NCBI GenBank assembly: GCA_022840695.1
Contig: JALHDC010000001.1
Location: forward strand, 84,456-148,455
DNA length: 64,000 nt
Reading direction: 5' to 3'
DNA from: a bacterium
Lineage (GTDB): Bacteria; Patescibacteriota; Dojkabacteria; SC72
Program-made: the position numbers and the translations under genes
Notes under the pieces: generated by a model
Databases searched by the model: none
What the model saw: the letters and a program-made list of their open reading frames with translations, nothing else
Told to the model about the DNA's origin: nothing
In this document: positions 21,286 to 60,027 of the stretch, piece by piece
How positions within the stretch are numbered: the stretch's first letter is position 1
Layout of the letters: each line of letters starts with the position of its first letter

Positions 21286-22881
21286 ATGAAGCTAAGCTTT
21301 AAGAAAGATTTACACATAGCTACAATTAGATCAGAGGAGATTTGGAATAAATTCAAAGTACATACACTATTACAAAACTGTGAATCTAAACAGCCATCGA
21401 TAAATGCATACCTTGGAGCCAGATACAGTAGATCATCAGATTCCATCGTAGATATTGCTTCTGAAATACTCAAAACTAATACAGATGCTGCTGAAAGATT
21501 AGAAAAAATATTCTCTGGATATGGTCATAAATCTGTTGGAGATATGGCAGACCTATTCCTCTGCTTAGAAGATATTCCTATGTTCACTGCTATGAAAATC
21601 TTCTACATCAACTCCGTAATTTCTGGACAGGAAAGATCTACAAGATATCAAAATTTCCAAAATCCAGAATTTGTAAAAATACCAAATGAAGTATGTACAG
21701 ATAGGGAGATAACTAAGGGATATGAAAGAATAATATTAAAACAGATGCAAGATTACAGGGAACTTCTTAAACCAACAAAAGATGCATTAGAGAAACATTT
21801 TAGAATTAATGATGAAAGTACACAGGAAGTATCAGCTCTAAAGGCTAGAGCATTTGATGTAGCAAGATATTTGCTTCCCTTTGGTCTAAATACAAGTTCT
21901 GCATATCTAATGTCTGCAAGGAATTGGTCTGATATGATCAGCTATCTTTGTTCTAGTGATTCTGTAGTTGAGAATTCTCTCTCTACACTTCTTTTGAATC
22001 TTTTAGGAGAATCTAACCTAGAAGCAAGAGGATATATTAGGGAAGCAGATGGCCTAATTAGACATACAGATGCAAATGGTTGTAGAAAGAGTTCTACAAA
22101 AAACATATTGGAATATATGAAAAAGAGTATATCTACAGAACAGTCTAGAGATATTCCCGAATGTGAGGAAGAAGCAATTAAAGTATCATACTCTCCAGAC
22201 TGTATGGAAGCTCTCATTTCTCACTATGAAGCATTGATTAATCCTTTAGGTTCTAAAGAAGAATTTGAGTTTTCTGAAACAGATCAAGAAGAGATAGGGG
22301 AGATAATATTTGAAAATCATGATCATCATAATACATTAGGTAATATCGGGCAATCAGGAGCTGTAAAGATAGAAGGTTTTGCAACTCTAGGTACATTGAA
22401 GGATATGAACAGGCACAGAAGCTTAGAAAGATTTATGCCAATATTTCATGACGAAATTGATATGGATCAGGAATTAGATAGAAGAAATGATCAATGTTTC
22501 TATCTCTGTAACTATTTAAACATTCCATCTCTTTCAAGATTAAGAAAGAGCTATGAAGAAAAACTCACAGATACATATGAGAGAATTAGAGAATGGAGAA
22601 AGATGGCAAAAGAGGTTCTCTCTAAAGAAGTTTGTGATGAGTATACAAAATATCTTCTTCCACATGCTCATGCTACAAGATATATCTTTTACGGATCATT
22701 TGATGATCTGCAATATATTTCAAATTTAAGAACTAGAAACGGAGGACATATAGCATATCGGAAATTGACATATGAATGGTTAAGAAATCTCTCCTACCTT
22801 GATCCAATATGGAGACCATTATTGAGAAAAATCATAGAGCCTCGTATTGATGACAAGCATCAATTTGTAGATAGAAGTTAA
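21286..22881 (+). CDS. Putative flavin-dependent thymidylate synthase ThyX-like protein, tandem-domain form (531 aa)
   Basis: N-half GYGHKSVGDMADLF…SGQERSTRYQ resembles ThyX GHESxxEH…SxxExSxRY but lacks RHR. C-half carries NRHRSLERF. Sits within the folD-glyA-…-dcd context. Confidence 0.45.
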   Translation: MKLSFKKDLHIATIRSEEIWNKFKVHTLLQNCESKQPSINAYLGARYSRSSDSIVDIASEILKTNTDAAERLEKIFSGYGHKSVGDMADLFLCLEDIPMFTAMKIFYINSVISGQERSTRYQNFQNPEFVKIPNEVCTDREITKGYERIILKQMQDYRELLKPTKDALEKHFRINDESTQEVSALKARAFDVARYLLPFGLNTSSAYLMSARNWSDMISYLCSSDSVVENSLSTLLLNLLGESNLEARGYIREADGLIRHTDANGCRKSSTKNILEYMKKSISTEQSRDIPECEEEAIKVSYSPDCMEALISHYEALINPLGSKEEFEFSETDQEEIGEIIFENHDHHNTLGNIGQSGAVKIEGFATLGTLKDMNRHRSLERFMPIFHDEIDMDQELDRRNDQCFYLCNYLNIPSLSRLRKSYEEKLTDTYERIREWRKMAKEVLSKEVCDEYTKYLLPHAHATRYIFYGSFDDLQYISNLRTRNGGHIAYRKLTYEWLRNLSYLDPIWRPLLRKIIEPRIDDKHQFVDRS

Positions 22882-23469: not shown

Positions 23470-24636
23470 TTACATTGTAGGTGGTACAGGAGGCAAATCC
23501 TCATCTGTTGTTGTGTCTTGTACAGGTTGCTGTACAGGAGGAGTCTCTACGACAGGAGGTTGTGTAGCCATATTCTGTATTTCACTGTTTATTGTATTTT
23601 GTAAATCTGCAGCAGATGGTGTAGGTTGAGTTTCTGGCATTACTGTTTCAGGAGACGAAGAAGGCATTGGTTCTGCTAATGTTGGAGCACTTTGTGGTAC
23701 TTCCTGTTGTATTGATGGTGTCTCTTGTTGCATCAACTCCTGAAGATCTTTCTCCTCATTACCTGAACTCATTGGAGGTGTTGTTGGCATGACAGGAGGA
23801 GTAGGGATAGTTTCTACAGGTGTGGACTCCACTACTGGTGGTACAGAAGCAGGTTGTGCTTGCTCTACAGCTGGCGTTTCTGGGATCACACTCTCCTCAG
23901 TTTTATTCACCATATCTTTCAATGTAGGTTCCTGTTGGGGAGTACTGACTGGTGTTTCCTCTTGAACAGGTTCACTCATAGGTGTTTCAACTGTCTCATC
24001 AACAGAGGACTCTTTTTTCTTACTTAATAAAATTCCAATTATACTAATCAGTAATACAACGGATCCTGCTATCAAAATGTATGGTAAATACTCTGTTAGA
24101 TTATCTATACTAAAACCAGTACTCTGAGTTGTAGTTGTAACACTTTCCTGTGTACTTATAAGAGTAGGATCTTCTACTGTAGTAGTATCCTCTTCCTCTG
24201 TTACTGTCTCTTCAACTTCTCCTATATTTACAACTTCACCTAATTCCAATTCCCCTATATCCAAATCAGTATCATCCAAAACGGTAAAGGTATATGTACT
24301 TTCATCCGAAGTAAATAATATGTTTGCTAATACTCCACTTAATTCAGTAGCAGTATCCAATTCACAAGTTATAGTTACAGTATCTGTACTGTCAACATAG
24401 TCCAAAGAAGAACAAGTTATTGTTCCTGAATTAACCTCTGATATTGTTACTCCTTCTGAAAACTGTATAGGTAATACAATTTTCTCCAAAGTATCAGTCC
24501 CTGTATTTACAGTTATAGAAACAGACTGAATATCGGTAGTAGAGTTATCCTTTAAAGTTACATCTACAGCAGCAAATGCTTTTAAAGGGAAAAGGATTAA
24601 AGCAAAAACAAACAGAAAAGAATATATTTTTTTCAT
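23470..24636 (-). CDS. Surface protein: signal peptide, ectodomain, single TM, long Pro/Thr/Glu/Gln-rich cytoplasmic tail
   Basis: MKKIYSFLFVFALILFPLKAFAA signal. TM YILIAGSVVLLISIIGILL preceded by QSTG. The C-terminal ~190 aa are low complexity. Confidence 0.6.
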   Translation of the reverse strand: MKKIYSFLFVFALILFPLKAFAAVDVTLKDNSTTDIQSVSITVNTGTDTLEKIVLPIQFSEGVTISEVNSGTITCSSLDYVDSTDTVTITCELDTATELSGVLANILFTSDESTYTFTVLDDTDLDIGELELGEVVNIGEVEETVTEEEDTTTVEDPTLISTQESVTTTTQSTGFSIDNLTEYLPYILIAGSVVLLISIIGILLSKKKESSVDETVETPMSEPVQEETPVSTPQQEPTLKDMVNKTEESVIPETPAVEQAQPASVPPVVESTPVETIPTPPVMPTTPPMSSGNEEKDLQELMQQETPSIQQEVPQSAPTLAEPMPSSSPETVMPETQPTPSAADLQNTINSEIQNMATQPPVVETPPVQQPVQDTTTDEDLPPVPPTM

Positions 24637-24710: not shown

Positions 24711-24739
24711 TTGACTTAATTGTTTTGTAAATATACACT
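24711..24739 (+). promoter_or_regulatory. Candidate promoter (TTGACT-N17-TACACT) of the Lon-like gene
   Basis: Hexamers seen directly, about 25 nt upstream of the ATG at 24764. Confidence 0.35.
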
Positions 24740-24763
24740 TAGATATATTAAAATCTGCCTTTT

Positions 24764-25972
24764 ATGGATTATTCAAGTAATTACAATATGAATAGTAATA
24801 CTCCTGTATCTTCTTCGATGGATGAGAATATGGGAGAAGTTTTGGAACTTGAGAATAAACTAAACTCCTCTAAGGTTCCAGAAACTCTAAAAGAGGAAGC
24901 CATGAGAAGTGTGTTAAGGCTTAAGAGAATGTTTAGAATGGGCGGATATAGTGCTGAGTTTGAAACTGTGAGTAAGTATGTTGATTGGGTAACAAGAATT
25001 CCTTGGGGAATTAATTCTAAAGATAGTTTTGATCTCCAGAATGCGAAGCAATTAATGGATCAAACACACTACGGTATGGAGACAATTAAGGATCTAATCC
25101 TTGACTACTTAGCTACAATGCAACTTCAAACTAGGGGAGGAATTGAGAGTAGGGCACCTATTCCATCTCAAATTTACGGAACTAATCCCCCTATTCAGAA
25201 GATTGCTAATAATGAAATGGCTGTATTGAAAGGTTCTTCTGCGAATGCTCCTGTATTTCTTTTTATTGGTCTTCAAGGTGTTGGTAAAACCTCTATAGCT
25301 AAATCAATAGCAACATCTATGGGTAGAAAGTTTGCTAGAGTTTCTCTAGGAGCAATAGGTGATGTCCGAACACTTAGGGGTACTCCAAGGTATTCAATAG
25401 ATGCAGAACCAGGACAGATAGTTAAGTCTCTTGTAAGGTGTGGAACTATGAATCCTGTAATACTTTTAGATGAGATTGAAAAATCAAGTGGAAATGCTGG
25501 ATTATTAAATGATGTAATGGCTGCACTACTTGAGATATTAGATCCTGAGCAGAATTCTAGCTTCATAGATCACTATATTGATTATCCAATAGATCTTTCT
25601 GGAGTATTTTTCATTTGTACGGCTAATAATCTTGGTGGTCTTTCTGCTGCATTACTTGATCGTGTTGAGGTAATTAGATTTACAAGTTATTCCGATGAAG
25701 AGAAAGAGGTGATAGGTAAACAGTATATACTTCCAAAAGTATTAAATAATCTTAATCTCTCATCAGATCATATTAAGATAGAGGAAGAAGTATGGCCTTT
25801 AATAATTCGTCCAGTTGGATTTGATGCAGGTATCAGACAATTGGAAAGAAATATAACAACGATGGTTAGGAGTGCTGCTAGGATGATCATAGAGGAAAAA
25901 CAGTTACCAATAATCATAAATAAGGAAAATCTCAGCCAGTATGTTTTGGCAGATCAGGGACCTTTAAGTTAA
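24764..25972 (+). CDS. Lon-like AAA+ ATPase lacking N-terminal LAN domain and C-terminal S16 protease domain
   Basis: Lon coiled-coil/linker (LKEEAMRSVLRLKRMF…SKYVDWVTRIPWG). Lon-type AAA+ core (LFIGLQGVGKTSIAKSIATSMGRKFARVSLG…ILLDEIEKS…LEILDPEQNSSFIDHY). Protein ends about 60 aa after sensor 2. Confidence 0.75.
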   Translation: MDYSSNYNMNSNTPVSSSMDENMGEVLELENKLNSSKVPETLKEEAMRSVLRLKRMFRMGGYSAEFETVSKYVDWVTRIPWGINSKDSFDLQNAKQLMDQTHYGMETIKDLILDYLATMQLQTRGGIESRAPIPSQIYGTNPPIQKIANNEMAVLKGSSANAPVFLFIGLQGVGKTSIAKSIATSMGRKFARVSLGAIGDVRTLRGTPRYSIDAEPGQIVKSLVRCGTMNPVILLDEIEKSSGNAGLLNDVMAALLEILDPEQNSSFIDHYIDYPIDLSGVFFICTANNLGGLSAALLDRVEVIRFTSYSDEEKEVIGKQYILPKVLNNLNLSSDHIKIEEEVWPLIIRPVGFDAGIRQLERNITTMVRSAARMIIEEKQLPIIINKENLSQYVLADQGPLS

Positions 25973-26226
25973 TATCCTTTGAATGGGTTTGCTAATTTTA
26001 AAGCTGATACAGCTCTGTGTATTTGTGGATTTTTTATACCTTTTGCTATGTCTGCTTTATATGTACTTTTCTCTTCTGCCTTACTCAATTGATCCAGATC
26101 AGAGAGTAATTTATCTTGTGCTATCTTCTTAGTATCTACTGCCTGTGTAACCAAGTAGTTAGACAGATTTATTTGATTTTGACTACTGTCCTGTTCTTCC
26201 ATATTCATCCTCCGGATAACTTTCAA
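25969..26226 (-). CDS. Small hypothetical protein, last gene of the VirB4 operon (true start may be an internal Met)
   Basis: 85-aa helical ORF overlapping the VirB4 3' end by 44 nt. No recognisable domain. Confidence 0.3.
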   Translation of the reverse strand: MKVIRRMNMEEQDSSQNQINLSNYLVTQAVDTKKIAQDKLLSDLDQLSKAEEKSTYKADIAKGIKNPQIHRAVSALKLANPFKGY

Positions 26227-28639
26227 CTAAACCTTGGGGAGTTAAATGTTTTCTTCCCCTTTGTATATCCTCCCTTGACTTTACAGTTTGTCCTGAAATT
26301 GTACTTTCTTTTAATTCATCTAAGAATGTTTTTTGACTTTTATATTTCTCAGGATTTAATTCCATCTCTTGCTGTCTTAATCTCTCTTCTATTTCTTTCT
26401 GATACTGTTTTCTTTCTTCTTCCAACATTCCTTTATTTCCCTCTGTCCTACGAATAGCTTCTTGTATAATTTGTTCTTCTCTTTTGAGATTTCCTCCTCC
26501 CTTTAGTGGCTTCTGTTCTGCTGGAGGATCAAATATTTCTGATAGCTCTTCAATGGTTCTAGTCTCTGTTTGTCCCTCTCTCTTCTTAAGTTTTTCTAAA
26601 TCCCTTGGGTCTGAAGTGATCAATTCGTGTTCAGATACACTAGAAAGAACTTGTATACCAACATGGTTTGATCCAGCGAAGAATAGTCCTTGTCCTTTGT
26701 CACAGTTAAGGAGGAAATTCTTTTCCCCATCAGAAAGATTGAATACCTCCTGAAGTTTCTCTACAGCGGTAGGGCTTTGCATCATTAACATCTGCATAGA
26801 TGAGTTTGAAATAATGGCTTTTCCCATATCTGTATTTAAGAAATCGGCTACATCCTGGGTTATTGTTGAAAGTCCTAAATAATATTTTCTCGCTCTCTTA
26901 GCTATTGAATACATGAATCTAGCAGAATCTTCCGATTGCATCATGTACCAGGCTTCATCTACCACTAACAATCTTCTTTTTCTCTCCTTCCTTATCTTTG
27001 TCCAAATGAAATCAAGCATTAAGTACATAGCTAAAGGTTTTAGCTCTTCCTGTAGGTCTCTAATACTAAATACAGTGAATGGATTATTAATCTCAAAGTT
27101 ACTAGCTTCATTGAAAACTCCTGCACCACTTCCAATTATGTATTTTTCTAATCTCTTGGCTAAACCATGTGCTTCTGGTTCTGCCATACCTTTCAACACT
27201 TTGTACAGATCTTCTAGCATAGGGGGTGTTTTAGTTTGTGTATTTGGATCAAAGGTGATACCTTTTTCTCTGTATGTAAGTATTAAAGCTCTATCTAATA
27301 TGGAACCTTCAATATTATCTATTTCTCCAAATAGTACTCGGAAGAATCCTTGAAGAGAAAGCATTTTCATCCTTAATTCATCATCTCCTTCCTCTGTAAC
27401 TCCTGAAAGCTCAAAAGGATTCATTTTGTTTCCTTTATCCTGAGAGAATGAAATATATGCACCATTTACAGCTCTACAAAGATCTTCATATTCTCTTTCT
27501 GGATCAATTATTATTATTTCTGTGCCAAGCATCAAACTTCTAACAGCTTCTAGTTTTACAAAATAGCTCTTACCAGCACCAGATTTAGCAAATACTACTG
27601 TATTTGCATTTTCTAATTCGAATCTATCAAAGATAACTAAACTTTTGTTATGGAGGTTTAATCCATACATTATTCCATGGTCCATTGTTAACTCAGAAGT
27701 AACGAAAGGAAAGGTGGTTGCCAACGATGTAGTATCCATGTTTCTAGTTATATACAGGTTATCGAGACCTAGAGGTTGGGTACTGATGAATCCTTGTTCT
27801 TGTTGTAGTGTAGCTGGTTTCGCAGTCACATTAATAGCTGCAAGTGTAGATGTTACATTTCTTCCAATCTTTTCTAATAGCTCTTTATCTTTCGCATACA
27901 AGGTTATGTACATAGCAAAATGGAAAAACTTTTCGGTACCCTCTGCAATAGAATCTTGTAACTGTTGAGCATCTGATAGGGCAACCTTTAGTGAAGGATC
28001 TACTACCTTCCTATCTTCCATTTGAGCATACAAAGAAGCTTCCATTTCTCCTATCTTCTTTTTCAATTTCTCAAGTATAGTTTTAGAATCAACGGGATAG
28101 TAGAAGGTACTTATCCTCAAAGAGTGTTCGAAGTTGATAATAGGAGATAACCAATTTGGTCCTACAAACCTAGGATATCCGCTTACAAAAAGAGTTTTGA
28201 AATAATACTCTCCCATCTCTAAATGATTAAAATCCACCTCCAAATCTATTGGGGCTACTATATCCTGTATGGACATGTCCGTAGGGGATACTTTTACCTT
28301 CTCCAATACTTCTGCAGATATTGATTCTCCAACATTGTTATCTACTCCTGAATCAGTACTTTTCTCTTTCTCTCCTTTTCCAAACACTCCTGCAACATTA
28401 TCTAAGAATGTAAATAGAAAATTCTTCTTTTTCTTCTTCTCTACATCTTCTTTTGGTATTGGATCATTATATCTATTAAAATTCATTTTTTCAGAATTAT
28501 CTGTTGGTTCAACTTTAATTTCCTCCTTGAATTCATTATATTTTTCTCCAGGAGTCTTAAGTTTCTCTGCCTGTTCCTGTAACATCTGTGCTGTTTTATT
28601 CTCAAACGATCTATTGTAGTTATCATTAATATTTTCCAT
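26183..28639 (-). CDS. VirB4/TrbE/CagE-family type IV secretion ATPase (core + C-terminal part), with charged N- and C-terminal extensions
   Basis: IDLEVDFNHLEMGEYYFKTLFVSGYPRFV, Walker A AKSGAGKSYF, IIIDPEREY, Walker B LLVVDEAWYMM, STITQDVADF. Confidence 0.85.
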   Translation of the reverse strand: MENINDNYNRSFENKTAQMLQEQAEKLKTPGEKYNEFKEEIKVEPTDNSEKMNFNRYNDPIPKEDVEKKKKKNFLFTFLDNVAGVFGKGEKEKSTDSGVDNNVGESISAEVLEKVKVSPTDMSIQDIVAPIDLEVDFNHLEMGEYYFKTLFVSGYPRFVGPNWLSPIINFEHSLRISTFYYPVDSKTILEKLKKKIGEMEASLYAQMEDRKVVDPSLKVALSDAQQLQDSIAEGTEKFFHFAMYITLYAKDKELLEKIGRNVTSTLAAINVTAKPATLQQEQGFISTQPLGLDNLYITRNMDTTSLATTFPFVTSELTMDHGIMYGLNLHNKSLVIFDRFELENANTVVFAKSGAGKSYFVKLEAVRSLMLGTEIIIIDPEREYEDLCRAVNGAYISFSQDKGNKMNPFELSGVTEEGDDELRMKMLSLQGFFRVLFGEIDNIEGSILDRALILTYREKGITFDPNTQTKTPPMLEDLYKVLKGMAEPEAHGLAKRLEKYIIGSGAGVFNEASNFEINNPFTVFSIRDLQEELKPLAMYLMLDFIWTKIRKERKRRLLVVDEAWYMMQSEDSARFMYSIAKRARKYYLGLSTITQDVADFLNTDMGKAIISNSSMQMLMMQSPTAVEKLQEVFNLSDGEKNFLLNCDKGQGLFFAGSNHVGIQVLSSVSEHELITSDPRDLEKLKKREGQTETRTIEELSEIFDPPAEQKPLKGGGNLKREEQIIQEAIRRTEGNKGMLEEERKQYQKEIEERLRQQEMELNPEKYKSQKTFLDELKESTISGQTVKSREDIQRGRKHLTPQGLVESYPEDEYGRTGQ

Positions 28640-29274
28640 TACTCTTCCTCAGGGTTATATATAGTGTAGAATTCAGACAATAATTCCTTTGTAGTTAATT
28701 GGTGTCCAAAAAGACCCATTCTTCCTAACTGCTTAAGAAGATGATCTCTCTTTGGAAAAAGAAATATCTTAGCTTTCTCTATTAATTGATCTGTTTGCAT
28801 CTGTTTGTATTTCTCCTGTTCCTCCTTATTCTTTTTACTATCAAAGATACTACCTCCAGGTAATGGTACACCAGGGCTATACGGTATTACAAGAAAGAAA
28901 CTTTTATCTAATACATCATTTTCCACAATTAATTTTTGTACAAATTCGGTATATATATCTAACTGCTTCTTTAGTCCCTCACTCATCTGCTTATTCTTTT
29001 GTCCTTTTAGGTAGTCTATGTAGTTAGTGATATCGATTCTTCTAGTTCTGATTAATATCTGAATTCTAAAGTTCAAGGAATTTAGCAATCCTGCAAAAGC
29101 ATATATCTTATTATCTTGTTCATACTCAGCCAAGAGATCAAAGTTTATGGAAGATGTTTGAATAATCATTGCTACACTACCATTCTTAGTTATTAAGAGA
29201 TCATCTTTTATATCCCTTACCCCCAAATGTTCTTGTGTTGATGCTGTAGCTCTCGCTCTTGCGTTCTTTTCCAC
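28639..29274 (-). CDS. VirB4 N-terminal-domain-like protein, translationally coupled to downstream VirB4 ORF
   Basis: LLITKNGSVAMIIQTSSINFDLLAEYEQDNKIYAFAGLLNSLNFRIQILIRTRR follows the VirB4/TrbE N-terminal pattern. Its stop overlaps the next ATG (TAATG). Confidence 0.5.
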   Translation of the reverse strand: MEKNARARATASTQEHLGVRDIKDDLLITKNGSVAMIIQTSSINFDLLAEYEQDNKIYAFAGLLNSLNFRIQILIRTRRIDITNYIDYLKGQKNKQMSEGLKKQLDIYTEFVQKLIVENDVLDKSFFLVIPYSPGVPLPGGSIFDSKKNKEEQEKYKQMQTDQLIEKAKIFLFPKRDHLLKQLGRMGLFGHQLTTKELLSEFYTIYNPEEE

Positions 29275-29275
29275 A

Positions 29276-30106
29276 TTAAATATTATTAATTTTAATAGGT
29301 GACTTATTCTCTCTGTTACTTAACTCTAGTTGTACCTTTGGGAATTTATACACAGGATGTTGAAATTCTAACATATATGTTCCAATATCCCACATTTTGT
29401 TTGTAAGGAAGTACCCATTGGTACCAGTTCGATTAGCATACAGAACCTTTTGCTGAGAATCTTTTAAATATACAATTACATTAGGTATTGGTTTAAAATC
29501 CTTTGTACATAACCAAGCATTAATGTTTCCTGGGAGCCTATCTAAACTTTTAATATTGAATTGGTAGTTAGCAATATTACTATCTGTAATTACTAAAAGG
29601 TTTGGATCAATAGGGGGGGTAGTTAGGTTTTCTTCTACATTTAATTCTTCATCAAGCATATCTATGTCATCTTCTACCTCTGCATCCTCTTTTTTTATAT
29701 CTAATCCAACTCCTATGATCTTTTTATTTTTATCTTTAACATCCTTTGGTATTATCTGTCCATCTTCAGAAGGTTTAACTTCAGGCTTACTCCTTTCTTC
29801 TCTCATATCTTTATTCATCCATACTCTTTGTGTTGGATTACTAATAGCGGAGATGTAATTTTTTATGAATACATCTGCATCTTGATCATTAACTGGTACT
29901 AATCCTAAAAATATTCCTGCCCCCGAGGAAATGATGAATACAGGTATTCCTAAAATACCTGGAATTATATTACTCGCAGTTAAATATATCATTACTCCTC
30001 CAAAGCCTATACCGATGGCTAAATAGGCGAATTCTTTTAGAGTGAATTTAGTAAAGAGTTTAAACTCAACATCTAATATATTTTGTGGAATAGCATGTTG
30101 TCTCAT
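29276..30106 (-). CDS. Membrane protein with N-terminal two-helix hairpin (VirB3-like by topology/position) and C-terminal beta-rich ectodomain
   Basis: TM1 FAYLAIGIGFGGVMIYL and TM2 ILGIPVFIISSGAGIFLGLV. C-terminal carboxypeptidase-regulatory-like motif RTGTNGYFLT…GTYMLEF. Lies 1 nt upstream of the VirB4-N ORF. Confidence 0.4.
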   Translation of the reverse strand: MRQHAIPQNILDVEFKLFTKFTLKEFAYLAIGIGFGGVMIYLTASNIIPGILGIPVFIISSGAGIFLGLVPVNDQDADVFIKNYISAISNPTQRVWMNKDMREERSKPEVKPSEDGQIIPKDVKDKNKKIIGVGLDIKKEDAEVEDDIDMLDEELNVEENLTTPPIDPNLLVITDSNIANYQFNIKSLDRLPGNINAWLCTKDFKPIPNVIVYLKDSQQKVLYANRTGTNGYFLTNKMWDIGTYMLEFQHPVYKFPKVQLELSNRENKSPIKINNI

Positions 30107-49589: not shown

Positions 49590-50753
49590 ATGGCAATGAT
49601 ATCAGAATTTATTGCCGCTATTAATCAAATAGCAGCAGAAAGAGGAATAGAAAAAGAAGAGATATTTCAAGCTCTTGAATCAGCTATTCTTGTGGCTTAC
49701 AAAAAGGAGAAATACTCTCCAACAGACAAAGAAGAGGATGAGGATCTGGGAAGTAACCTTACAATTGAGATGGACAGAGAATCAGGAAATTACAAATTGA
49801 TTGCTACAAAAGAAGTAGTGAAGAAGGTTAAAGATAATGATACTGAAATATCAGTTTCAGAGGCTGAACTTATATCTCCAAATGTAGAGGTTGGCGATTC
49901 CATACAAATAGAAATGCCAACAGAAGATTTCGGTAGAATAGCAGCTCAGACTGCAAAGCAGGTAATTTTGCAGAAGATAAGGGAATCAGAAAAGGAAGCA
50001 GTAATAAGCGAATATAGTGATAAAGTTGGAGAGGTATTTACAGCTTTGATGCAAAGAATGCAGAAGGGTGAGGTTATTTTTGAAATAGGGAAAGCTACAG
50101 CATATATGCCTCCTGAAGAGCAAATTCCAAATGAATTCTATAGATTAGGGGATAGGTACAAAGTGTTGCTTAAGGATATTGTTGATTCTCAGATGTTGGT
50201 ATCTCGAGCAGATCCTGCATTTTTAATAGAGTTGTTTAAGTTGGAAGTTCCGGAGATAGAATCAGGTGTTTTAGAAATCAAGGCTATAGCTAGAGAAGCA
50301 GGTTCTAGAAGTAAGATGGCTGTAAATTCTACTCAGGAAGGTGTAGATCCAATCGGTTCATGTGTTGGACAAAGAGGTATTCGTATTGCAAATGTTATGA
50401 ACGAGCTAGGAGAAGAAAAGATTGATATAATAGAGTGGGATGAAGAACCTGAGCAATTTGTAGCAAATGCATTGAGTCCTGCAAAGATAGATTCAGTTAA
50501 AATTGAGGATGATACTGCTACAGTTACAGTTGCAGATGATCAACTCTCACTAGCTATTGGTAGAGATGGTCAAAATGTAAGGTTAGCTTGGAAGTTAACT
50601 GGGTTCAAAATAGATATTGTTGGTTCTGGTGGAAGTATAGTGAAAGAGGAAGATTTAGAAGAAATGAAAAAGGATGTCGAGGAGAAGGAGGAAGAAAAAG
50701 AGAAAGTTGAAGTTAAAGAAGAATCTGAGAACACAGATGAAAAGTCAGAATAA
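49590..50753 (+). CDS. nusA: Transcription termination/antitermination factor NusA
   Basis: N-terminal domain, S1 and two KH regions (…GSCVGQRGIRIANV…AIGRDGQNVRLAWKLTG…). Acidic tail. Confidence 0.95.
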   Translation: MAMISEFIAAINQIAAERGIEKEEIFQALESAILVAYKKEKYSPTDKEEDEDLGSNLTIEMDRESGNYKLIATKEVVKKVKDNDTEISVSEAELISPNVEVGDSIQIEMPTEDFGRIAAQTAKQVILQKIRESEKEAVISEYSDKVGEVFTALMQRMQKGEVIFEIGKATAYMPPEEQIPNEFYRLGDRYKVLLKDIVDSQMLVSRADPAFLIELFKLEVPEIESGVLEIKAIAREAGSRSKMAVNSTQEGVDPIGSCVGQRGIRIANVMNELGEEKIDIIEWDEEPEQFVANALSPAKIDSVKIEDDTATVTVADDQLSLAIGRDGQNVRLAWKLTGFKIDIVGSGGSIVKEEDLEEMKKDVEEKEEEKEKVEVKEESENTDEKSE

Positions 50754-50774
50754 ATTATTGTTAATAAAAATAGA

Positions 50775-52334
50775 ATGTCTAAGATTGATAAAGTCACAAA
50801 AGGGAATGTTGCAAGCACAAAAGACTGTGCTAGACCCCCTATTGTCACTATCTTAGGACATGTAGATCACGGTAAAACAACAATATTAGATAAGATTCGC
50901 GAGAGTAATGTTCAAGGTTGTGAGGCAGGTGGAATTACTCAGAAGGTTTCAGTTTTTACAGTGCAAATTCCGAATGGTAAGCAGATAACATTCGTAGATA
51001 CTCCAGGTCATGAAGCATTTGATTTGATGAGATCTAGGGGTGGTAGTATTGCAGATATAGTTCTTCTTGTAGTAGCAGCAGATGATGGGGTTAAACCTCA
51101 GACTAAGGAATCTATAGAGATAATAAATAATTCAGATGCCAAACCCATTGTTGTCATAAATAAAGTTGATCTTCCAGATATTTCTGTTGAGAAAGTAAAA
51201 AGAGATGTTGTAAATAACGGACTTCAGTTAGAAGGTTTTGGAGGTAGTATTCCAGTGATAGAGGTTTCTGGAAAAACAGGTAAAGGAATTCCTGAATTAT
51301 TAGATATGATCCTTTTGGTTGCTGAGGTTGAAGGAGTACGAAGTGATGATGATATGCCAAAGGGAATTTTAGGAAAAGCATTTGTTTTAGAATCAGTGAA
51401 AGATAAATTCAAAGGCAATATGTCTTCTATTGCTCTGATACAGGGAGTAATATGCCAAGGAAATTGGTTGGGGTATAGAGTAGATGATAAATTTGTAATA
51501 GAGAAGGTTAAGGGAATGATAACAGAAGAAGGTGAGAATCTTTGTATGTTAGATTGTGGATGTGGTGGAAAAATAATTGGTATTTCAAACTTATTGGAAC
51601 TAGGGACTGAGGTATATGTTTTAGAGAATAGAGATCAAGAATTATTGAAATCTTTGTATAAATCTAATAAGGAAAGTGTACTAGAAGAGGATGTTACTCT
51701 TGAAGAGTTCTTCACATTGAATAGTGAAAATTCAGGAGAATGTTTAAATGTTGTTGTTAAGAGTTCTTCTGAAGGGTCTCTTGAAGCTATAAGGAACTCA
51801 TTGGGAAAGATTGAGGAAGACGGATATCGAGTAAATATCGTTGATTCTGGAGTTGGAAATATTGGTTTAAGAGATGCGGAATTAGCTGAGCTTTCCAAGG
51901 CAATACTTCTAGGCTTTGAAGTTGGTATAGAACCTGGTGTTGTAGATTATGCTAAGAAAAAGAGAATATTAGTTAAAACATATGAGATAATATACAAACT
52001 TCTTGAAGAGGTGCAGGAAGCAGTGTCTTTAATGTCTTTGCCTACAAGTAATGAGGAAGAGATAGGTAATGCTACTGTAAGAACACTATTCACATTGTCA
52101 GATGGAACTTTAATACTTGGTTCAAGAGTGGAAAAGGGGTATCTTAAAAAGGATTGTAAGGTTGATATTGTTAGAAATGATGAGATAATTGCGGAAAGTA
52201 AGATTAAGTCATTAAGAATAAACAAAGACTCTGTTAATGAGGTTAAAGCTGGTTTTGATTGTGGAATTCAACTTAATGATTCGTTAGAAATTAAGGAAGG
52301 AGATCAAATATACTGCTATAAGGTTGTTAAATAG
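50775..52334 (+). CDS. infB: Translation initiation factor IF-2, short form (519 aa)
   Basis: G-domain HVDHGKTTILDKIR, DTPGHEAF, NKVD. Follows nusA. Confidence 0.9.
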   Translation: MSKIDKVTKGNVASTKDCARPPIVTILGHVDHGKTTILDKIRESNVQGCEAGGITQKVSVFTVQIPNGKQITFVDTPGHEAFDLMRSRGGSIADIVLLVVAADDGVKPQTKESIEIINNSDAKPIVVINKVDLPDISVEKVKRDVVNNGLQLEGFGGSIPVIEVSGKTGKGIPELLDMILLVAEVEGVRSDDDMPKGILGKAFVLESVKDKFKGNMSSIALIQGVICQGNWLGYRVDDKFVIEKVKGMITEEGENLCMLDCGCGGKIIGISNLLELGTEVYVLENRDQELLKSLYKSNKESVLEEDVTLEEFFTLNSENSGECLNVVVKSSSEGSLEAIRNSLGKIEEDGYRVNIVDSGVGNIGLRDAELAELSKAILLGFEVGIEPGVVDYAKKKRILVKTYEIIYKLLEEVQEAVSLMSLPTSNEEEIGNATVRTLFTLSDGTLILGSRVEKGYLKKDCKVDIVRNDEIIAESKIKSLRINKDSVNEVKAGFDCGIQLNDSLEIKEGDQIYCYKVVK

Positions 52335-52343
52335 GTATTATGC

Positions 52344-52372
52344 TTGACAGATGTCCTATAAAATTATACAAT
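52344..52372 (+). promoter_or_regulatory. Sigma70-like promoter of rpsO (TTGACA-N17-TACAAT)
   Basis: Perfect -35 and a good -10 with 17-nt spacing, seen directly downstream of infB. Confidence 0.6.
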
Positions 52373-52440
52373 ATCCGTTGTTTCCACTTTGTTGGATTCT
52401 CTCTTGATTATGTAATTATATAATGCTAACCTATACTAAT

Positions 52441-52704
52441 ATGTCATTAACCAAGGAAGCAAAGTCTGAGATTGTAGATAAGTTCGCCCTCCACGAGGGT
52501 GATACAGGTTCTCCAGAAGTACAAATTGCACTACTTACTCAACAGATTCTAGATTTGAGTGAACATCTTAAAGATCATAAAAAAGATAATCACTCAAGAA
52601 AAGGTCTTTTGAATATGGTTGGGAAAAGAAGAAGATTAATACAATATTTAAAGAGTAGCGAACCAGAAAGGTATGATACCCTTTCAAAAAAGTTGAAGAT
52701 ATAA
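52441..52704 (+). CDS. rpsO: 30S ribosomal protein S15
   Basis: [36 protein letters not shown]… is an S15 N-terminus. Start set at the internal Met (the ORF-track start 52423 adds 6 aa). Confidence 0.9.
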
Positions 52705-52749
52705 CAATCTTCAATCCCTCTTTCTTTGTTAAAACTTTCCAATTAAAAT

Positions 52750-52778
52750 AGATAGATTAAAATATCTGTCTGATTTTT
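52750..52778 (+). terminator. Candidate rpsO terminator/attenuator hairpin before pnp
   Basis: AGATAGAT-N6-ATCTGTCT (one mismatch) followed by GATTTTT. AT-rich stem. Confidence 0.4.
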
Positions 52779-52803
52779 AATATAAATTAATAAATATATA
52801 TAA

Positions 52804-54885
52804 ATGTTGTTTAAAGAAATAAAACACGAGTTTGAGATAGAGGGTAGAAAATGTTCCTTTGAAACAGGAAAACTTGCTCTTAGGTCAGAATCATCTATTT
52901 TGGCCAGAATGGGAGATACTGTAATAACAGTTAATGTTAATAGTAAGCCATCATCTGGTGAATTTGATTATTTTCCTCTTTCAGTGGAATATATTGAAAA
53001 GTTCTATGCATCTGGAAAGATAAGTGGATCCAGATTTGTAAAAAGAGAAAGATTCCCTACTGATGATGCAGTACTTAAGGCAAGGATGATAGATAGAGCT
53101 ATAAGACCAAGGTTCCCACATGATTACAAAAATGAAGTAAGTATAATAGTTACAGTTATGTCATACGATGAGGAGAATGATCCTCTTCTTTTGGCTATTA
53201 ACACAGTATCTGTAGCTCTAATGAATTCTAAGTCTCCTTTTGAAGGTCCAATTGCAGGAGTTAGAGTTGGAATGGATGGAGAGAATTTTACTAATATGAT
53301 GAAATCAATGGATTTAACATCTTCCGAGGATAGAATGAACTATGTAGTAGCAGGAGATGGGGAAACTTTTACTATGATAGATGCAGGGGCATATGAGATA
53401 GAGGAAGAAAAAATTCTTGATGGTATGAAGAAGTCTTTGGAATATATGAAGTTTTGGTTAGATGCTCAAAGTGAGTTCTTAGGTAAACTAGAAGCAAAGG
53501 ATAAGGTGTATGAAAAGATCTCTACAGATGAAGAAATCATTGAGAAAGTAAAAGAATTCTTGGGAGAAGAAAGAATTCTTAAAAATCTTCAAGCTTCTGA
53601 TTCTGAAATACATGGCTTAGCTCAGGAGGAATTGTATAAAAAGTTTGAGGGTAAATATTCTAAATCTAGTCTTAATGATGCTTACGATCTACTTCTTAAG
53701 AAAGCTTTAAGAAAGTTGGTACTAGAAGAGGATGTAAGATCTGATGGTAGAAAAATGGATGAAATTAGAGAAATGGCAACTGAAATAGATCTATTACCTA
53801 GGGTACATGGATCTGCACTATTCACAAGAGGTGTTACACAGACATTAACCATAGCTACATTGGGAAGTCTGAAAGATGTTAGATTGGTTGATGATATGGA
53901 GGGAGAAAGAGAGCAAAGATATATGCATTTCTACAATGATCTTCCATTTGCATATGGTGATGCAGATAGGGTTAAATTAATGCCAAGTAGAAGAGCAATA
54001 GGTCACGGTATGTTAGCAGAGAAGGGTCTATGGCCCGTTATTCCTTCAGAGGAAGAATTCCCATACACAATATTAGTAATGAGTGAGATACAAGGTGAAA
54101 ATGGTTCTAGCTCTATGGCCTCTGCATGTGGTTCTACAATGTCTTTGATGGCGGCAGGAGTCCCTCTTAAGAAAGCAGTTGGTGGTATAGCATGTGGTTT
54201 AGTTACTGGTGAGAATGGAGAATTTAAAGTATTAACTGATATGCAAGGTGTAGAGGATTTCTATGGTGATATGGATTTCAAAATCTTAGGCACCAAAGAT
54301 GGTGTTACAGCTGTTCAGATGGATACTAAAACTAAAGGTTTAGCTATGGATATCGTTGAACAAACATTTAAACAATCTAAAGAAGCTAGATTAAAGATTT
54401 TAGAAAAGATGGCAGAAGCTATAGCTGAACCTAGAACCACTATGTCTAAATATGCTCCTAGAGTTGTACAGGTAAAGGTTCCTAAGGACAAGATAGGGGA
54501 AATAATCGGTCCAGGAGGTAAAAATATCCGAGAAATATCTGAAAGGACAGAAGCTGAGATAGAGATAGAGGAAGATGGTACAGTAAATATATATAGCTCC
54601 TCAGAAGAGTCTATAGAAATGGCAAAGAAATTAATCTCTGGATATGATTTTAAGGCTGAAGTAGGGGAAATATATGAAGGTAAAGTCGCTTCTATTATGA
54701 CCTATGGAGCTTTCGTAGATTTAGCACCAGGAGTTGCTGGACTACTTCATGTATCCGAGATAGCAGATGAATTTGTAAAGGATGTAAGAAAATATGTTAA
54801 TGAAGGAGATATCATAAAGGTAAAGGTAGTAGGGATAGATGGACAGGGAAAGATAAAATTGAGTATTAAGGGGTTAGAGAAATAG
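52804..54885 (+). CDS. pnp: Polynucleotide phosphorylase
   Basis: Two RNase PH domains plus KH (…IGPGGKNIREI…) and S1 (…GKVASIMTYGAFVDL…) domains. 693 aa. Confidence 0.97.
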   Translation: MLFKEIKHEFEIEGRKCSFETGKLALRSESSILARMGDTVITVNVNSKPSSGEFDYFPLSVEYIEKFYASGKISGSRFVKRERFPTDDAVLKARMIDRAIRPRFPHDYKNEVSIIVTVMSYDEENDPLLLAINTVSVALMNSKSPFEGPIAGVRVGMDGENFTNMMKSMDLTSSEDRMNYVVAGDGETFTMIDAGAYEIEEEKILDGMKKSLEYMKFWLDAQSEFLGKLEAKDKVYEKISTDEEIIEKVKEFLGEERILKNLQASDSEIHGLAQEELYKKFEGKYSKSSLNDAYDLLLKKALRKLVLEEDVRSDGRKMDEIREMATEIDLLPRVHGSALFTRGVTQTLTIATLGSLKDVRLVDDMEGEREQRYMHFYNDLPFAYGDADRVKLMPSRRAIGHGMLAEKGLWPVIPSEEEFPYTILVMSEIQGENGSSSMASACGSTMSLMAAGVPLKKAVGGIACGLVTGENGEFKVLTDMQGVEDFYGDMDFKILGTKDGVTAVQMDTKTKGLAMDIVEQTFKQSKEARLKILEKMAEAIAEPRTTMSKYAPRVVQVKVPKDKIGEIIGPGGKNIREISERTEAEIEIEEDGTVNIYSSSEESIEMAKKLISGYDFKAEVGEIYEGKVASIMTYGAFVDLAPGVAGLLHVSEIADEFVKDVRKYVNEGDIIKVKVVGIDGQGKIKLSIKGLEK

Positions 54886-56709: not shown

Positions 56710-59700
56710 ATGAGTATAAAAACTATTAAATTATTTAGAACCATATCTAAAATATTTCTAATATTGATAGGGGTTGGTTTAGTTGGATACCTAGGTTATT
56801 TAGGCTATATTTCCTACAAGTTTCCTCCATACAAAGTTACAGTTTCAAATATAACAGATAGTTCATTTACCGTATCTTGGGTTACAGATGTCCCGACAAG
56901 GGGTTATGTGTATTACAAAGAGAAGGATAGTTTTTTGCCGGGGCTATTGGGTTGGATAAATAGTGGTGTAGCATATGATGATAGGGATTGGGCATATAAT
57001 CAGAGTGTTTGTGTAAATGAGTTTAATGCTAATTCAGAGGTAGATGATACTTTTACGGTAGTTAATTCGGATAATTTTGATTGTGAGGATATAAAAGTTA
57101 AAAATATTGAAAGTTTCTATACTCACCATGTTACATTAAAGAATTTAGATGCTGAGAAAGAGTATTACTTCAGAGTAGGGAATGGGTTTTGGGGGTGGAA
57201 GACAGAGGAGTATAGTTCTAGTACATTTTCCTTATTAACCGATATTCTTGAACCTGCTCCTGTGTTTGGCAGAGTTGTTATTACAGACGACTTGACTTCT
57301 TATGATTCTATAATATATGGAAAGTTTTTGAATTATGGTAATGAAAAAGAATCTGTTTTGTATTCTTCTGTTACAAATGATGATGGAGGATGGTATCTCG
57401 ATGCTTCTGGTGCTAGAGATGAAGAAGGTGAGTTAGTAGATCTGGAAAGGGGAGAGGATATGTTTCGTGTTGTTGCCCAAATTCTTAATTTGCCTTTAAG
57501 TAGTTCATATGAATGGATATTTGAATCTTTGGATGGTGCATATCCAGATATCATCCTTGAAGAAGATTTTGATATAGTTATAGAAGAGGGAGTAAAGGGT
57601 GTTGCTGATTCGAATATTCCTGATGAAGGTGGGGAAGTATTAAGCATCTGGGATTTTGTTCTCCCTGCTCCTATACAAACTATAGTGAATACGGTTAAAA
57701 GTACAGTGACAGGTATCAAAGCGGTAGCAAATACAGTATCTAGTATTGTAAACAAATCTCCTGCCGCCTCAACAGCAGCTACCACTCCAACTTATCAGAG
57801 CTTAACTCCAACAGTAAAAAGTAGTACTGTTGGTCTTGGTACTGTCCAGGCTACAGTAACCCACAAATCTACTCCTTTAGGAACGGCACCTACTTCACCT
57901 TCATTCACGACTCCACAAATTTCTTTATCTTCAATTCCATCACTTTCCAACAACAATCTGACATCGAGTACACAAAATCAAACTACAAATAAGACATTAA
58001 CAGCAGAAGATATTAACAAGCTTTCTGACCAAGAAGTAAGAGCTGAAATATGTCCTTCATGTCCATCTTATGTCACGGCTAAACAAATAAGGGAAATAGC
58101 TACCAGTAATGATACAGCCTTTATAGCTGGAATGACTAAAGTTATTGGGGCTGGAAATGTTGGAAGAATTGTAGCTGGAACTAGTGAGAATGGAGTTCTT
58201 GGTATTCCAGAATTACAAAAGATGGGGCTTCCAACAAATAATGCAACCGCTATAGTTGGTAATTTAAATGCTCTATCTCGATGTAATGGTCCTCAGGGAA
58301 GTGAAAATGCATGTATGAAGGCTGAGAAAGTTCAGGAGATGCTAGATAACCAGGATTGGGATTCATTAGCTACATTGGGTATACAAATAGATAAGAATAA
58401 AACCTATAACGATGGATCCCTTTGGACAAATCCTAGAAATATAAAAGTTGAAACAAAATTTACTCCTCCTGATGTCGTTGTCCCTACTGGAATAGTAACT
58501 CATGCACAGGTTAGAGCAAAACAAGATAAAGTTGAGGATAAGACAAAAGGTTTGATATTCAGTAATGCCGAATGGGTTGGCCCACTAAGATTTTCTTCAG
58601 AATTTGGAGCTCCAGATACCTTAAAATTAGAGATTACTAATTCGAAAGATCAACAGGAAGTTCCCGATCTTGTTTATAATAGTGCAACTGGAAAATATGA
58701 AATGGGTAGTATTAAGGGGATTGGGCAATACATGGCTGCTTCCTTCTTTGAAACTCCTAGAGGAATTTTAGAATATATGAATGAGGGAAAGTTGAAGATC
58801 CCAGGATTTAGATTTGGTCCGTTGTCATTACTTAATCCTAGAATAGAAGAAACCGAAGAAGGATCTTCATTTTCCCTTAATATTAAAGCTCCTGTGGGTT
58901 TGATAGAGGTTGGTAATGAAGGAATGTTAGGAATTATTGTTGATACGATATTAAAAAATACTACTCCACAGGAAAACCCACATTTGGAAAATGTAGAAGT
59001 AAAGGGTGCTACAGATCAAGAAGCTTTAGAGATGATGACACAATTATGTTTTAAAGTAAGTGAAACAGGTTGTTCTACCGGTATTAATATTATTCCAATA
59101 AAAATAGATTCCACAGATTCCAATTCTTTGGAATCTTTATTAGGAAGATTTAGATTTAAAGCATATGCTGAAGTCACAGAGAATGACGATTTCCTGTATT
59201 ACGCATCAGAGGATGGAATATTTGATCTCTCGGTTAATGGGATAAAAGTTTCTGAAGATATGAATATTGCAAGTAACGATCTAATTATGCTGTATGTTGA
59301 AGGTAATGGACAGGAAGGGTTTCAAGCACCTAAGGATTGGTTGGATCCTAAAGATGGGGAGGATAGGATAGTATCTACTTCTTCTGTTGCTATAGAGACT
59401 GAGAAGAAATCTTCTGACATGACTATTGAGTTGAAAGAGGGAATTAACATAATAGGAGTTGATGCAATGCCTATAAGTACAGGAAATGAGATTTTGACAG
59501 CTAGAAAATTGGTAGGATTGTATCCTGATGATATACAATTTGTAGCGGAATATTCTGCTGGTAGATGGAGTAATATCGTAAGAGCTGATATAGATAGCTC
59601 TAATGGAATGGATTTCCCGATTATTCCAGGAAAGGGATATCTAATTTCTTCAAACTATGATATCGATATAAAAATTCCAGTAAAAAAATTAGTAAATTCT

Positions 59701-60027
59701 GTTCCTTTGTATTTGTCAGCGGGTTGGAACCTAGTCGGAATACACGGCTATACCAAGGCCTTTACTGCAAGATCTTTAATTGATTCCATAAATGGGGTTG
59801 AAGGTTTAACTGCAGATAATGTCTCATGGTGGCCCACTTCCAAGGGAAAGTATGAAGGCTTACAAGTTACTGCTGGGACATCATATGGTTTAGATTTTCC
59901 AATAAGTCCTAAGAATGGATATTTTGTTAGAATAAATAAATTTGAGCCTTCTTCTTCAGATTGTAATTCCATAATATGGCAAGAAGGAGCTGATGCTCAT
60001 GGAAAGTGTGGAACCAATAATTTATAA
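56710..60027 (+). CDS. Very large TM-anchored surface protein (1105 aa) with N-terminal Fn3-like domain
   Basis: N-terminal TM IFLILIGVGLVGYLGYLGYI. Fn3-like VSNITDSSFTVSWVTDVPTRGYVYY…YTHHVTLKNLDAEKEYYFRVG. Several Cys-rich segments. Confidence 0.6.
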   Translation: MSIKTIKLFRTISKIFLILIGVGLVGYLGYLGYISYKFPPYKVTVSNITDSSFTVSWVTDVPTRGYVYYKEKDSFLPGLLGWINSGVAYDDRDWAYNQSVCVNEFNANSEVDDTFTVVNSDNFDCEDIKVKNIESFYTHHVTLKNLDAEKEYYFRVGNGFWGWKTEEYSSSTFSLLTDILEPAPVFGRVVITDDLTSYDSIIYGKFLNYGNEKESVLYSSVTNDDGGWYLDASGARDEEGELVDLERGEDMFRVVAQILNLPLSSSYEWIFESLDGAYPDIILEEDFDIVIEEGVKGVADSNIPDEGGEVLSIWDFVLPAPIQTIVNTVKSTVTGIKAVANTVSSIVNKSPAASTAATTPTYQSLTPTVKSSTVGLGTVQATVTHKSTPLGTAPTSPSFTTPQISLSSIPSLSNNNLTSSTQNQTTNKTLTAEDINKLSDQEVRAEICPSCPSYVTAKQIREIATSNDTAFIAGMTKVIGAGNVGRIVAGTSENGVLGIPELQKMGLPTNNATAIVGNLNALSRCNGPQGSENACMKAEKVQEMLDNQDWDSLATLGIQIDKNKTYNDGSLWTNPRNIKVETKFTPPDVVVPTGIVTHAQVRAKQDKVEDKTKGLIFSNAEWVGPLRFSSEFGAPDTLKLEITNSKDQQEVPDLVYNSATGKYEMGSIKGIGQYMAASFFETPRGILEYMNEGKLKIPGFRFGPLSLLNPRIEETEEGSSFSLNIKAPVGLIEVGNEGMLGIIVDTILKNTTPQENPHLENVEVKGATDQEALEMMTQLCFKVSETGCSTGINIIPIKIDSTDSNSLESLLGRFRFKAYAEVTENDDFLYYASEDGIFDLSVNGIKVSEDMNIASNDLIMLYVEGNGQEGFQAPKDWLDPKDGEDRIVSTSSVAIETEKKSSDMTIELKEGINIIGVDAMPISTGNEILTARKLVGLYPDDIQFVAEYSAGRWSNIVRADIDSSNGMDFPIIPGKGYLISSNYDIDIKIPVKKLVNSVPLYLSAGWNLVGIHGYTKAFTARSLIDSINGVEGLTADNVSWWPTSKGKYEGLQVTAGTSYGLDFPISPKNGYFVRINKFEPSSSDCNSIIWQEGADAHGKCGTNNL

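Follow-up and report, generated by a model that had tools for sequence, protein, structure and literature searches.

The window analysed here is a stretch of 64,000 nucleotides (64 kb) from a bacterium of the Dojkabacteria (assembly GCA_022840695.1, contig JALHDC010000001.1, positions 84,456 to 148,455 of the forward strand). Between a divergent upstream gene and a convergent operon resembling part of a type IV secretion system (T4SS) it encodes a 402-aa protein, hereafter Lon-AAA, which clearly derives from the ATP-dependent protease LonA and carries neither the N-terminal LAN domain nor the C-terminal S16 protease (P) domain of that family (Table 1). Homologues of this short form make up a strongly conserved clade within a branch of the candidate phyla radiation (CPR), in which the ATPase residues are kept and the constraint on the pore loops that grip polypeptides is specifically released.

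Domain architecture and fold of Lon-AAA

A preliminary description, made from the nucleotide sequence, had read the protein as a Lon homologue consisting of the segment that precedes the AAA+ module plus the module itself, and Pfam, NCBIfam and solved-structure matches all agree with it. The Pfam scan of the 402-aa protein detected AAA (PF00004) over aa 166-307 (E 1.5e-18, 68 bits against a cut-off of 21) and Lon_lid over aa 331-379, and found neither Lon_C/S16 nor LON_substr_bdg (PF02190). The NCBIfam model TIGR00763 ("lon") matched with an E-value of 1.7e-96 over model positions 253-569 of 795 only, and the family cut-offs were missed for both TIGR00763 (324 against 608 bits) and NF008053 (244 against 891 bits). 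Other AAA+ clades were far weaker (ClpA 1e-11, ClpB 1e-5, RuvB 0.01), and the possibility that one of them might fit better than Lon was thereby discarded, Lon being ahead of ClpA, ClpX and RuvB by more than 80 orders of magnitude. Likewise, the 32 best matches among the sequences of solved structures are all LonA, led by the B. subtilis enzyme (3m6a, E 3e-73), and align in two blocks, aa 22-121 and aa 159-394.

The first block was aligned by HMMER to residues 6-102 of the B. subtilis construct 3m6a, and helices are predicted at residues 16-35, 40-58, 65-78, 91-101 and 106-123. Judging from this alignment, the block is the C-terminal end of the HI(CC) region and not the long coiled coil; the coiled-coil linker of the preliminary description is thus replaced by a three-helix bundle, which in truncated Lon constructs such as 3m6a caps the ATPase ring. 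Between the two blocks lie 37 residues that interrupt the Lon alignment, with a predicted local distance difference test score (pLDDT) below 50 over aa 127-161. The second block comprises the AAA+ domain, with Walker A (GLQGVGKTS, aa 169-177), Walker B (VILLDEIEK, with D236 and E237), the pre-sensor-1 hairpin, sensor-1 N288 and the arginine finger R300, followed by a lid domain that aligns to the isolated Lon alpha-domains 1qzm and 1x37. All motifs quoted previously (GVGKTS, ILLDEIEKS, LEILDPEQN and FICTANN) were recovered; the end of the protein, which had been placed about 60 aa past the sensor region, in fact lies 113 aa after FICTANN, and therefore the protein includes the entire lid.

A model computed with AlphaFold2 from an alignment of 46 sequences (pLDDT 71, predicted template-modelling score 0.65) has only LonA structures as its top matches in the PDB, with a template-modelling score of about 0.71. 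Its low-confidence segments are the N-terminal 17 residues, aa 127-161, both pore-loop regions and the last four residues. By sequence and model, the Lon-type AAA+ module, composed of three-helix bundle, alpha/beta domain and Lon lid, is complete. Nevertheless, the protein is outside LonA as that group is defined, since it lacks the protease and LAN domains and the canonical pore loop and scores below the family cut-off.

The absence of LAN and S16 domains in or beside the gene, as previously proposed, extends to the surrounding DNA. Residues 1-250 and 585-784 of E. coli Lon gave no tblastn match in any frame of the window, and neither the window nor 41 related loci (see below) matched the P domains of E. 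coli Lon or of the proteins at loci L084, L048 and L050. A protease or LAN domain hidden by a frameshift, or to be restored by sequence correction, was rejected on the grounds of these all-frame searches and of the conserved genes that occupy the flanks. An in-frame protease domain further downstream is likewise contradicted by more than 160 relatives, whose C-termini coincide and carry a conserved tail.

Table 1. Lon-AAA, its parts and other features of the window (positions in the 64-kb window).
Feature	Position	Strand	Details
Complete gene of Lon-AAA, a LAN-less, protease-less LonA-derived AAA+ ATPase	24764..25972	+	402 aa plus stop
N-terminal tail, aa 1-21, N/S-rich, weakly conserved, predicted disordered	24764..24826	+	pLDDT <50 over aa 1-17; N-termini variable in the family
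N-terminal helical bundle, aa 22-121, corresponding to the three-helix bundle of the LonA N-terminal domain	24827..25126	+	HMMER alignment to 3m6a
Linker insertion, aa 122-158, clade-specific, hypervariable, disordered	25127..25237	+	Gap in all Lon alignments; pLDDT <50
AAA+ alpha/beta domain, aa 159-310	25238..25693	+	Pfam, structure-sequence alignments, motifs
Pore loop 1, aa 205-217, RGTPRYSIDAEPG	25376..25414	+	Ungapped alignment between RG and PG anchors
Lon-type lid (alpha) domain, aa 311-394, with sensor-2 R358 in FDAGIRQLER	25694..25945	+	Pfam Lon_lid; 1qzm, 1x37
Near-invariant C-terminal tail DQGPLS-COOH, aa 397-402	25952..25969	+	Alignments; D397, Q398, G399 and L401 invariant
Candidate sigma-70-like promoters TTGACT-17-TACACT and TTGTAA-18-TAAAAT	24711..24754	+	127-bp divergent intergenic region
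Divergent 388-aa gene upstream	23470-24636	-	Signal peptide, transmembrane segment, long P/T/Q/E-rich tail; no Pfam match
Conserved 85-aa open reading frame, last gene of the T4SS-like operon	25969-26226	-	dN/dS 0.035-0.063; 13 loci
Convergent T4SS-like module downstream	26183-30106	-	PrgI-like, TraC-like and VirB4-like genes
ThyX (Thy1) gene	21286-22881	+	531 aa
nusA-infB-...-pnp cluster	49590-54885	+	pnp at 52804-54885, then convergent rsmB
Gene with purple-acid-phosphatase-N/fn3-type domains	56710-60027	+	1105 aa
KilA-N domain gene	60357-61238	-	
Gene with purple-acid-phosphatase-N/fn3-type domains	61317-63155	+	612 aa

Conserved motor residues and released pore loops

In order to compare the ATPase machinery, a set of 52 short forms (the query included) was aligned with 48 full-length Lons. 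The residues K175, T176, D236, E237, N288, R300 and R358 are kept in every sequence of both sets. The aromatic residue of pore loop 1, on the other hand, is present at its canonical position in all 48 full-length Lons and in only 10 of the 52 short forms. Another 11 short forms, the query's subgroup with its RGTPRYSID motif, have an aromatic residue only one position earlier, an arrangement not seen in the full-length set, and in 30 short forms the seven-residue tip of the loop is devoid of any aromatic residue, again against none of the 48. In the query the tyrosine in question is Y210, shifted by -1 relative to the canonical RGHRRTY[ILV]GxxPG. This loop aligns without ambiguity, as the distance between the RG and PG anchors on either side of it does not change.

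The same difference is seen in the column entropies, which over RGHRRTY[ILV]G are 0 bits in the full-length set and 1.4-3.1 bits in the short clade. Averaged over the AAA+ region, the entropies of the two sets are similar (1.28 bits in the short forms, 1.13 in the full-length Lons), and the change in the pore loop is therefore not a matter of general divergence. Only ten positions combine invariance in the full-length Lons with high variability in the short forms; of these, five fall within pore loop 1 or next to it, and one in pore loop 2. In LonA of M. taiwanensis, Tyr397 of pore loop 1 and Trp431 of pore loop 2 contact the substrate and are needed for degradation (PMC8503904). The constraint on the loops that grip the polypeptide has thus been specifically released in the short clade.

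Other features set the clade apart. In place of GPPG, the residues before Walker A read G[LIV][QV]G, and the pore loop is followed by [AS]EPGQ. The linker between the bundle and the AAA+ domain measures 3-138 aa, compared with 2-3 aa in 43 of the 48 full-length Lons; the 498-aa protein P0130, considered as a possible variant with an N domain preceding the AAA module, was set aside once its extra length proved to be such an insertion, of 138 aa and low complexity. The C-terminal tails are characteristic of each subgroup, being DQGPLS in the query's, [DE]xG[VI][YF][ST] in its sister group and ...FLPQW or ...YLPNYY in the deep-branching group.

Conservation and origin of the short form

The best 120 matches to Lon-AAA among 5.8 billion proteins are all 365-425 aa long and 66-100 % identical to it, and, where named, they are called "AAA family ATPase" (Candidatus Dojkabacteria) or, in JGI records, "ATP-dependent Lon protease". 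Over 160 relatives from independent assemblies share their end points. Against a 95 %-identical orthologue the ratio of non-synonymous to synonymous substitution rates (dN/dS) of the gene is 0.054, at an unsaturated dS of 0.50, and the neighbouring genes of the same genome pair gave 0.084 (SHMT), 0.072 (ThyX), 0.032 (Dcd) and 0.044 (VirB4). Strong purifying selection therefore acts on the gene.

Searching one genome for each GTDB species gave 80 loci, whose surrounding open reading frames (ORFs) were tested against the N, A and P domains of E. coli Lon. In 41 species representatives the ORF, of 349-472 aa, encodes the A module only. The 37 complete matches from outside the CPR are canonical Lons with N, A and P domains (682-884 aa), and to these is added one full-length CPR Lon, L084, from a Parcubacteria genome. 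Further short representatives came from an exhaustive search of 50 % clusters. The 41 short-form loci all come from CPR-type metagenome-assembled genomes (MAGs), recorded as Dojkabacteria, WWE3, Shapirobacteria, Woykebacteria or "Patescibacteria group"; for several of the MAGs the label is obviously unreliable.

In a neighbour-joining tree of 328 shared columns, a single-marker analysis by a modest method, the short forms are monophyletic in 100 of 100 bootstraps and nested within LonA; the full-length Parcubacteria protein is sister to them in 49 of 100. Based on these relationships, both flanking domains were likely lost a single time, in the ancestor of a CPR branch, and the short form would have a single origin.

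A separate observation concerns the records themselves. Loci L040, L041, L043, L045-L047, L008, L009 and L015, among others, belong to the many third-party annotation (TPA) MAG records titled "uncultured Gammaproteobacteria", "Pseudomonadales" or "Saccharibacteria", and these apparently mislabelled MAGs have short Lon genes and neighbourhoods near-identical to those of genomes labelled Shapirobacteria or Dojkabacteria. The taxonomic titles of such TPA records look unreliable.

A putative protease-free remodeller

We hypothesize that Lon-AAA is a stand-alone, ATP-driven and protease-free remodeller of LonA descent in which polypeptide threading has been relaxed, a reading to which, on the comparative evidence, we assign a probability of about 0.5. 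LonA would have lost its LAN and S16 domains once, in the ancestor of a CPR branch comprising Dojkabacteria, WWE3 and Microgenomates-type lineages, and the short form would have been kept since. A conserved arginine finger that acts in trans makes sense only in an oligomer, and we therefore infer an oligomeric ring, which the finger together with the Lon-like fold suggests to be a Lon-like hexamer. Conformational cycling driven by ATP would remodel, hold or disassemble client macromolecules, to be released afterwards without degradation. Most of the clade may have reduced or given up processive threading by the tyrosine paddle, with the query's subgroup keeping its out-of-register tyrosine, and the protein would act alone, independently of the T4SS-like operon next to it. 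The role of unfoldase or chaperone suggested in the preliminary description needs qualification, since the pore loop that would thread the substrate is not conserved.

Several points weigh against this proposal. The putative hexamer would have to form without the ring of P domains. The shifted tyrosine is conserved in 109 of the 120 close relatives of the query, and some threading may persist in its subgroup. In addition, the conserved C-terminal tail lies on the face once turned towards the protease ring, where it may serve to dock a separate partner.

The nearest known relatives are the LonA proteins (B. subtilis 3m6a, E. coli 6u5z, M. taiwanensis 4ypl/7fd4; MEROPS S16), to which the short form is about 37 % identical over some 365 aa. 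Both have the three-helix bundle, the Lon-specific lid, the HCLR-type AAA+ alpha/beta domain with its pre-sensor-1 hairpin and all catalytic residues of the ATPase. However, LonA has a LAN domain, a long coiled coil and a Ser-Lys protease domain of the S16 type, all three absent from the short form, as well as the canonical HRRTY pore loop 1 and the GPPG motif, neither of which is conserved there, whereas the short form has the variable, disordered insertion between bundle and AAA+ domain and the conserved C-terminal tail. In published classifications all Lons carry both ATPase and protease domains (PMC9569914). LonC of M. taiwanensis, a Lon-like protease with a degenerate AAA-like domain devoid of ATPase activity, is likewise a natural derivative of Lon with only one working half. 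It constitutes the mirror image of the present case, keeping the protease and losing the ATPase, while the short form keeps the ATPase and loses the protease (PMC9569914).

ClpB/Hsp104 and ClpX are also AAA+ proteins of the HCLR clade that are able to work without a covalently attached peptidase, and the helical region of LonA is related to that of ClpB (PMC6722904). Their aromatic pore-loop paddles are strictly conserved, unlike those of the short clade, and Lon-AAA differs from them further in having a single AAA+ ring with neither an M-domain nor a zinc-binding or N-terminal adaptor domain. Lon-type AAA+ modules are also found under the NCBI name "AAA family ATPase" in P0123, a 1113-aa protein of Candidatus Dependentiae. 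This protein, P0125, P0127 (1675 aa) and others contain four to six stretches matching the query, corresponding to two or three tandem Lon-type AAA+ modules; such multi-module proteins, a further unusual architecture derived from Lon, belong to different lineages, outside the short clade.

Search for a separate peptidase

If Lon had been split, or paired anew, the short form would be an unfoldase half that docks by its C-terminal tail onto a peptidase ring encoded elsewhere (S16, ClpP, HslV or other). We regard this as rather unlikely, although it accounts for several observations: the ATPase machinery is intact, the loop tyrosine is retained in the query's subgroup, and the extreme C-terminus, on the former P-domain face, is strongly conserved as DQGPLS or as the [DE]xG[VI][YF][ST] of the sister group, the latter of which we take to resemble docking motifs of the Hb-Y-X or IGF type. 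Nevertheless, the tail motif is absent in the deep-branching group, and the aromatic residue needed for translocation into a chamber has been lost in most of the clade.

The searches for a partner point in the same direction. Nothing that could encode an S16 or LAN domain was detected in the window or in roughly 700 kb flanking the 41 short genes, and genes for ClpP, HslV or FtsH were found neither within 10 kb of those genes nor in the 64-kb window, whose large ORFs, DnaK, DnaJ and GroEL among them, encode no peptidase. The partnership with a separately encoded protease contemplated in the preliminary description is consequently unsupported in this flanking sequence. A search of 5.8 billion proteins with the P domain of L084, the closest full-length Lon from the CPR, yielded no CPR-named and no genuine stand-alone S16 protein, its matches being contig-end fragments from many phyla, uninformative with regard to the CPR, and frameshifted lon genes.

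Two short S16 proteins on long contigs were examined as candidates and rejected, as they are pieces of frameshift-fragmented lon genes in non-CPR long-read assemblies. At these loci, L088 and L089 (contigs of 655 kb and 1.18 Mb), the full-length lon gene and its neighbours are chopped into two to five consecutive ORFs. The spurious "stand-alone S16" and "AAA-only" database proteins that arise in this manner could be mistaken for split Lons.

Genomic context of the short Lon genes

Clustering of the neighbourhoods of the 41 loci and the window distinguished three contexts. In group A, that of the query, the order is folD-glyA-thyX-dcd, a gene for a surface protein or an aminotransferase, Lon-AAA and the convergent T4SS-like operon. 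In group B the gene follows yidC-jag(KhpB)-rplY(L25/Ctc). In the deep-branching group C, with members from WWE3, Shapirobacteria-type genomes and one Dojkabacteria, it is part of a one-strand array, rpsO-pnp-LON-(udg)-rnj, with 17-27 bp between pnp and the short gene and 18-120 bp ahead of rnj (loci L034, L036, L038, L040-L043, L046, L047 and L053).

The position between the genes for PNPase and RNase J, the two main RNA exonucleases, is the most suggestive of these contexts, though it is weakened by what follows. It would fit an ATPase of RNA decay or of the ribosome, that is, a remodelling subunit working with PNPase and RNase J in a degradosome-like assembly or acting on ribonucleoprotein (RNP) clients, and this explanation we consider unlikely. 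The arrangement, with all genes on the same strand, recurs in 10-11 deep-branching loci of several CPR classes, a second subgroup has the gene after yidC-jag(KhpB)-rplY, and relaxed protein-threading loops suit a client other than a polypeptide. Lon AAA+ modules bind nucleic acids. However, the full-length Parcubacteria Lon L084 also stands just after infB-rbfA-DHH, and such a neighbourhood may therefore predate the truncation. In the query genome Lon-AAA is uncoupled from pnp, which, in contrast to the group C relatives, lies 27 kb away in the nusA-infB-...-pnp cluster and is followed by the convergent rsmB. Adjacency is, moreover, partly to be expected, because genes of RNA metabolism and translation make up a large share of CPR genomes. 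The short-form proteins are acidic to neutral, with a mean isoelectric point of about 6 and no surplus of basic residues, and nucleic-acid binding deduced from charge was discarded as unsupported.

A bolder version of the idea, which we rate as a long shot, is that a CPR branch turned Lon into a non-proteolytic, non-threading remodeller, ancestrally encoded in an rpsO-pnp-X-rnj array, and that it serves as the ATPase of an assembly for RNA decay or RNP quality control. If true, this would represent a new functional class of Lon-derived AAA+ machine, with RNA or RNP clients in place of protein delivery to a protease.

In the window the downstream neighbour is the T4SS-like module, which is conserved in the query's Dojkabacteria subgroup. 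It comprises a 276-aa PrgI-family membrane protein with a C-terminal beta-sandwich, a 211-aa TraC-like protein and an 818-aa VirB4/TraG-type P-loop ATPase, which also matches PADLOC mad8. The last gene of the operon, the 85-aa ORF, overlaps the start of the VirB4-like gene by 44 nt and has equivalents of 75-85 aa in L001, L003, L006 and L007; no Pfam or PADLOC match was obtained for it. Its stop codon overlaps that of the convergent Lon-AAA gene by 4 nt (TTAA), an overlap kept in orthologues down to 68 % identity.

Lon-AAA might be envisaged as an accessory ATPase of this VirB4/TraC-like/PrgI-like module, for instance in unfolding or priming substrates for secretion or uptake, and such a role is very unlikely. 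The gene does abut the operon in the window and in 16-18 of the 41 species representatives, and the stop-codon overlap recurs in the window and the four loci just named. The adjacency noted in the preliminary description is thus real, but it is lineage-specific, confined to the query's subgroup (the remaining contexts being rplY or pnp/rnj), and the genes are convergent and therefore not co-transcribed. Even in a 71 %-identical relative, L004, the operon's place downstream is taken by a PilM/FtsA-like gene, the upstream order folD-glyA-thyX-dcd is conserved to the same degree, which points to general collinearity of the genomes, and short Lon genes at loci without the module refute an obligate coupling at the locus level.

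Finally, that the gene is a non-functional remnant of a full-length lon, or such a lon distorted in assembly or annotation, has a negligible likelihood: the JGI name "ATP-dependent Lon protease" and the fragmented lon genes that noisy long-read assemblies do contain could be put forward in its favor, but the low dN/dS, the end points shared by so many independent assemblies, the invariant catalytic residues, flanks held by other conserved genes and the lack of S16 or LAN remnants in any frame of the window and related loci all oppose it, and the degenerating gene of the preliminary description is rejected on the same dN/dS and on the conservation across the clade.

Other features of the window

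The promoter previously attributed to the gene owes its plausibility solely to the divergent orientation of the upstream gene; sigma-70-like sites upstream of Lon-AAA number 9, compared with 11.7 +/- 3.5 expected from shuffled sequences, which is not significant. The 388-aa product of the upstream gene is probably a cell-surface protein, and with a dN/dS of 0.18-0.25 it evolves several times faster than its neighbors. An assignment of the locus to Dodola defence, in which DolB is a ClpB-like ATPase, was rejected, since the DolB match reaches only 46 bits (E 8e-13) against 324 for Lon; the DolA models gave no match in the five neighboring genes scanned.

Further away, the ThyX protein has 531 aa, roughly double the length usual for ThyX and the same as in L001, L003 and L007, and it may be a duplicated or fused ThyX. 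The 1105- and 612-aa proteins are likely surface proteins, and the KilA-N domain gene located between their genes may mark a mobile or phage-derived insertion.

Significance

Our literature search retrieved no paper that joins Lon with Dojkabacteria, Patescibacteria or CPR, and none that describes a protease-less Lon. The database labels could be corrected, "ATP-dependent Lon protease" being wrong and "AAA family ATPase" uninformative. The protein is also a readily testable target, as it is small and soluble and Y210 offers a clear mutational control. Lon is regarded as the archetypal single-chain AAA+ protease, and here an ancient and strongly selected clade of the ultra-small CPR bacteria keeps the motor only. 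This amounts to a natural experiment on the capacities of a Lon AAA+ ring once proteolysis and canonical threading are gone, and raises the question of how, or whether, minimal CPR cells carry out protein quality control of the Lon type.

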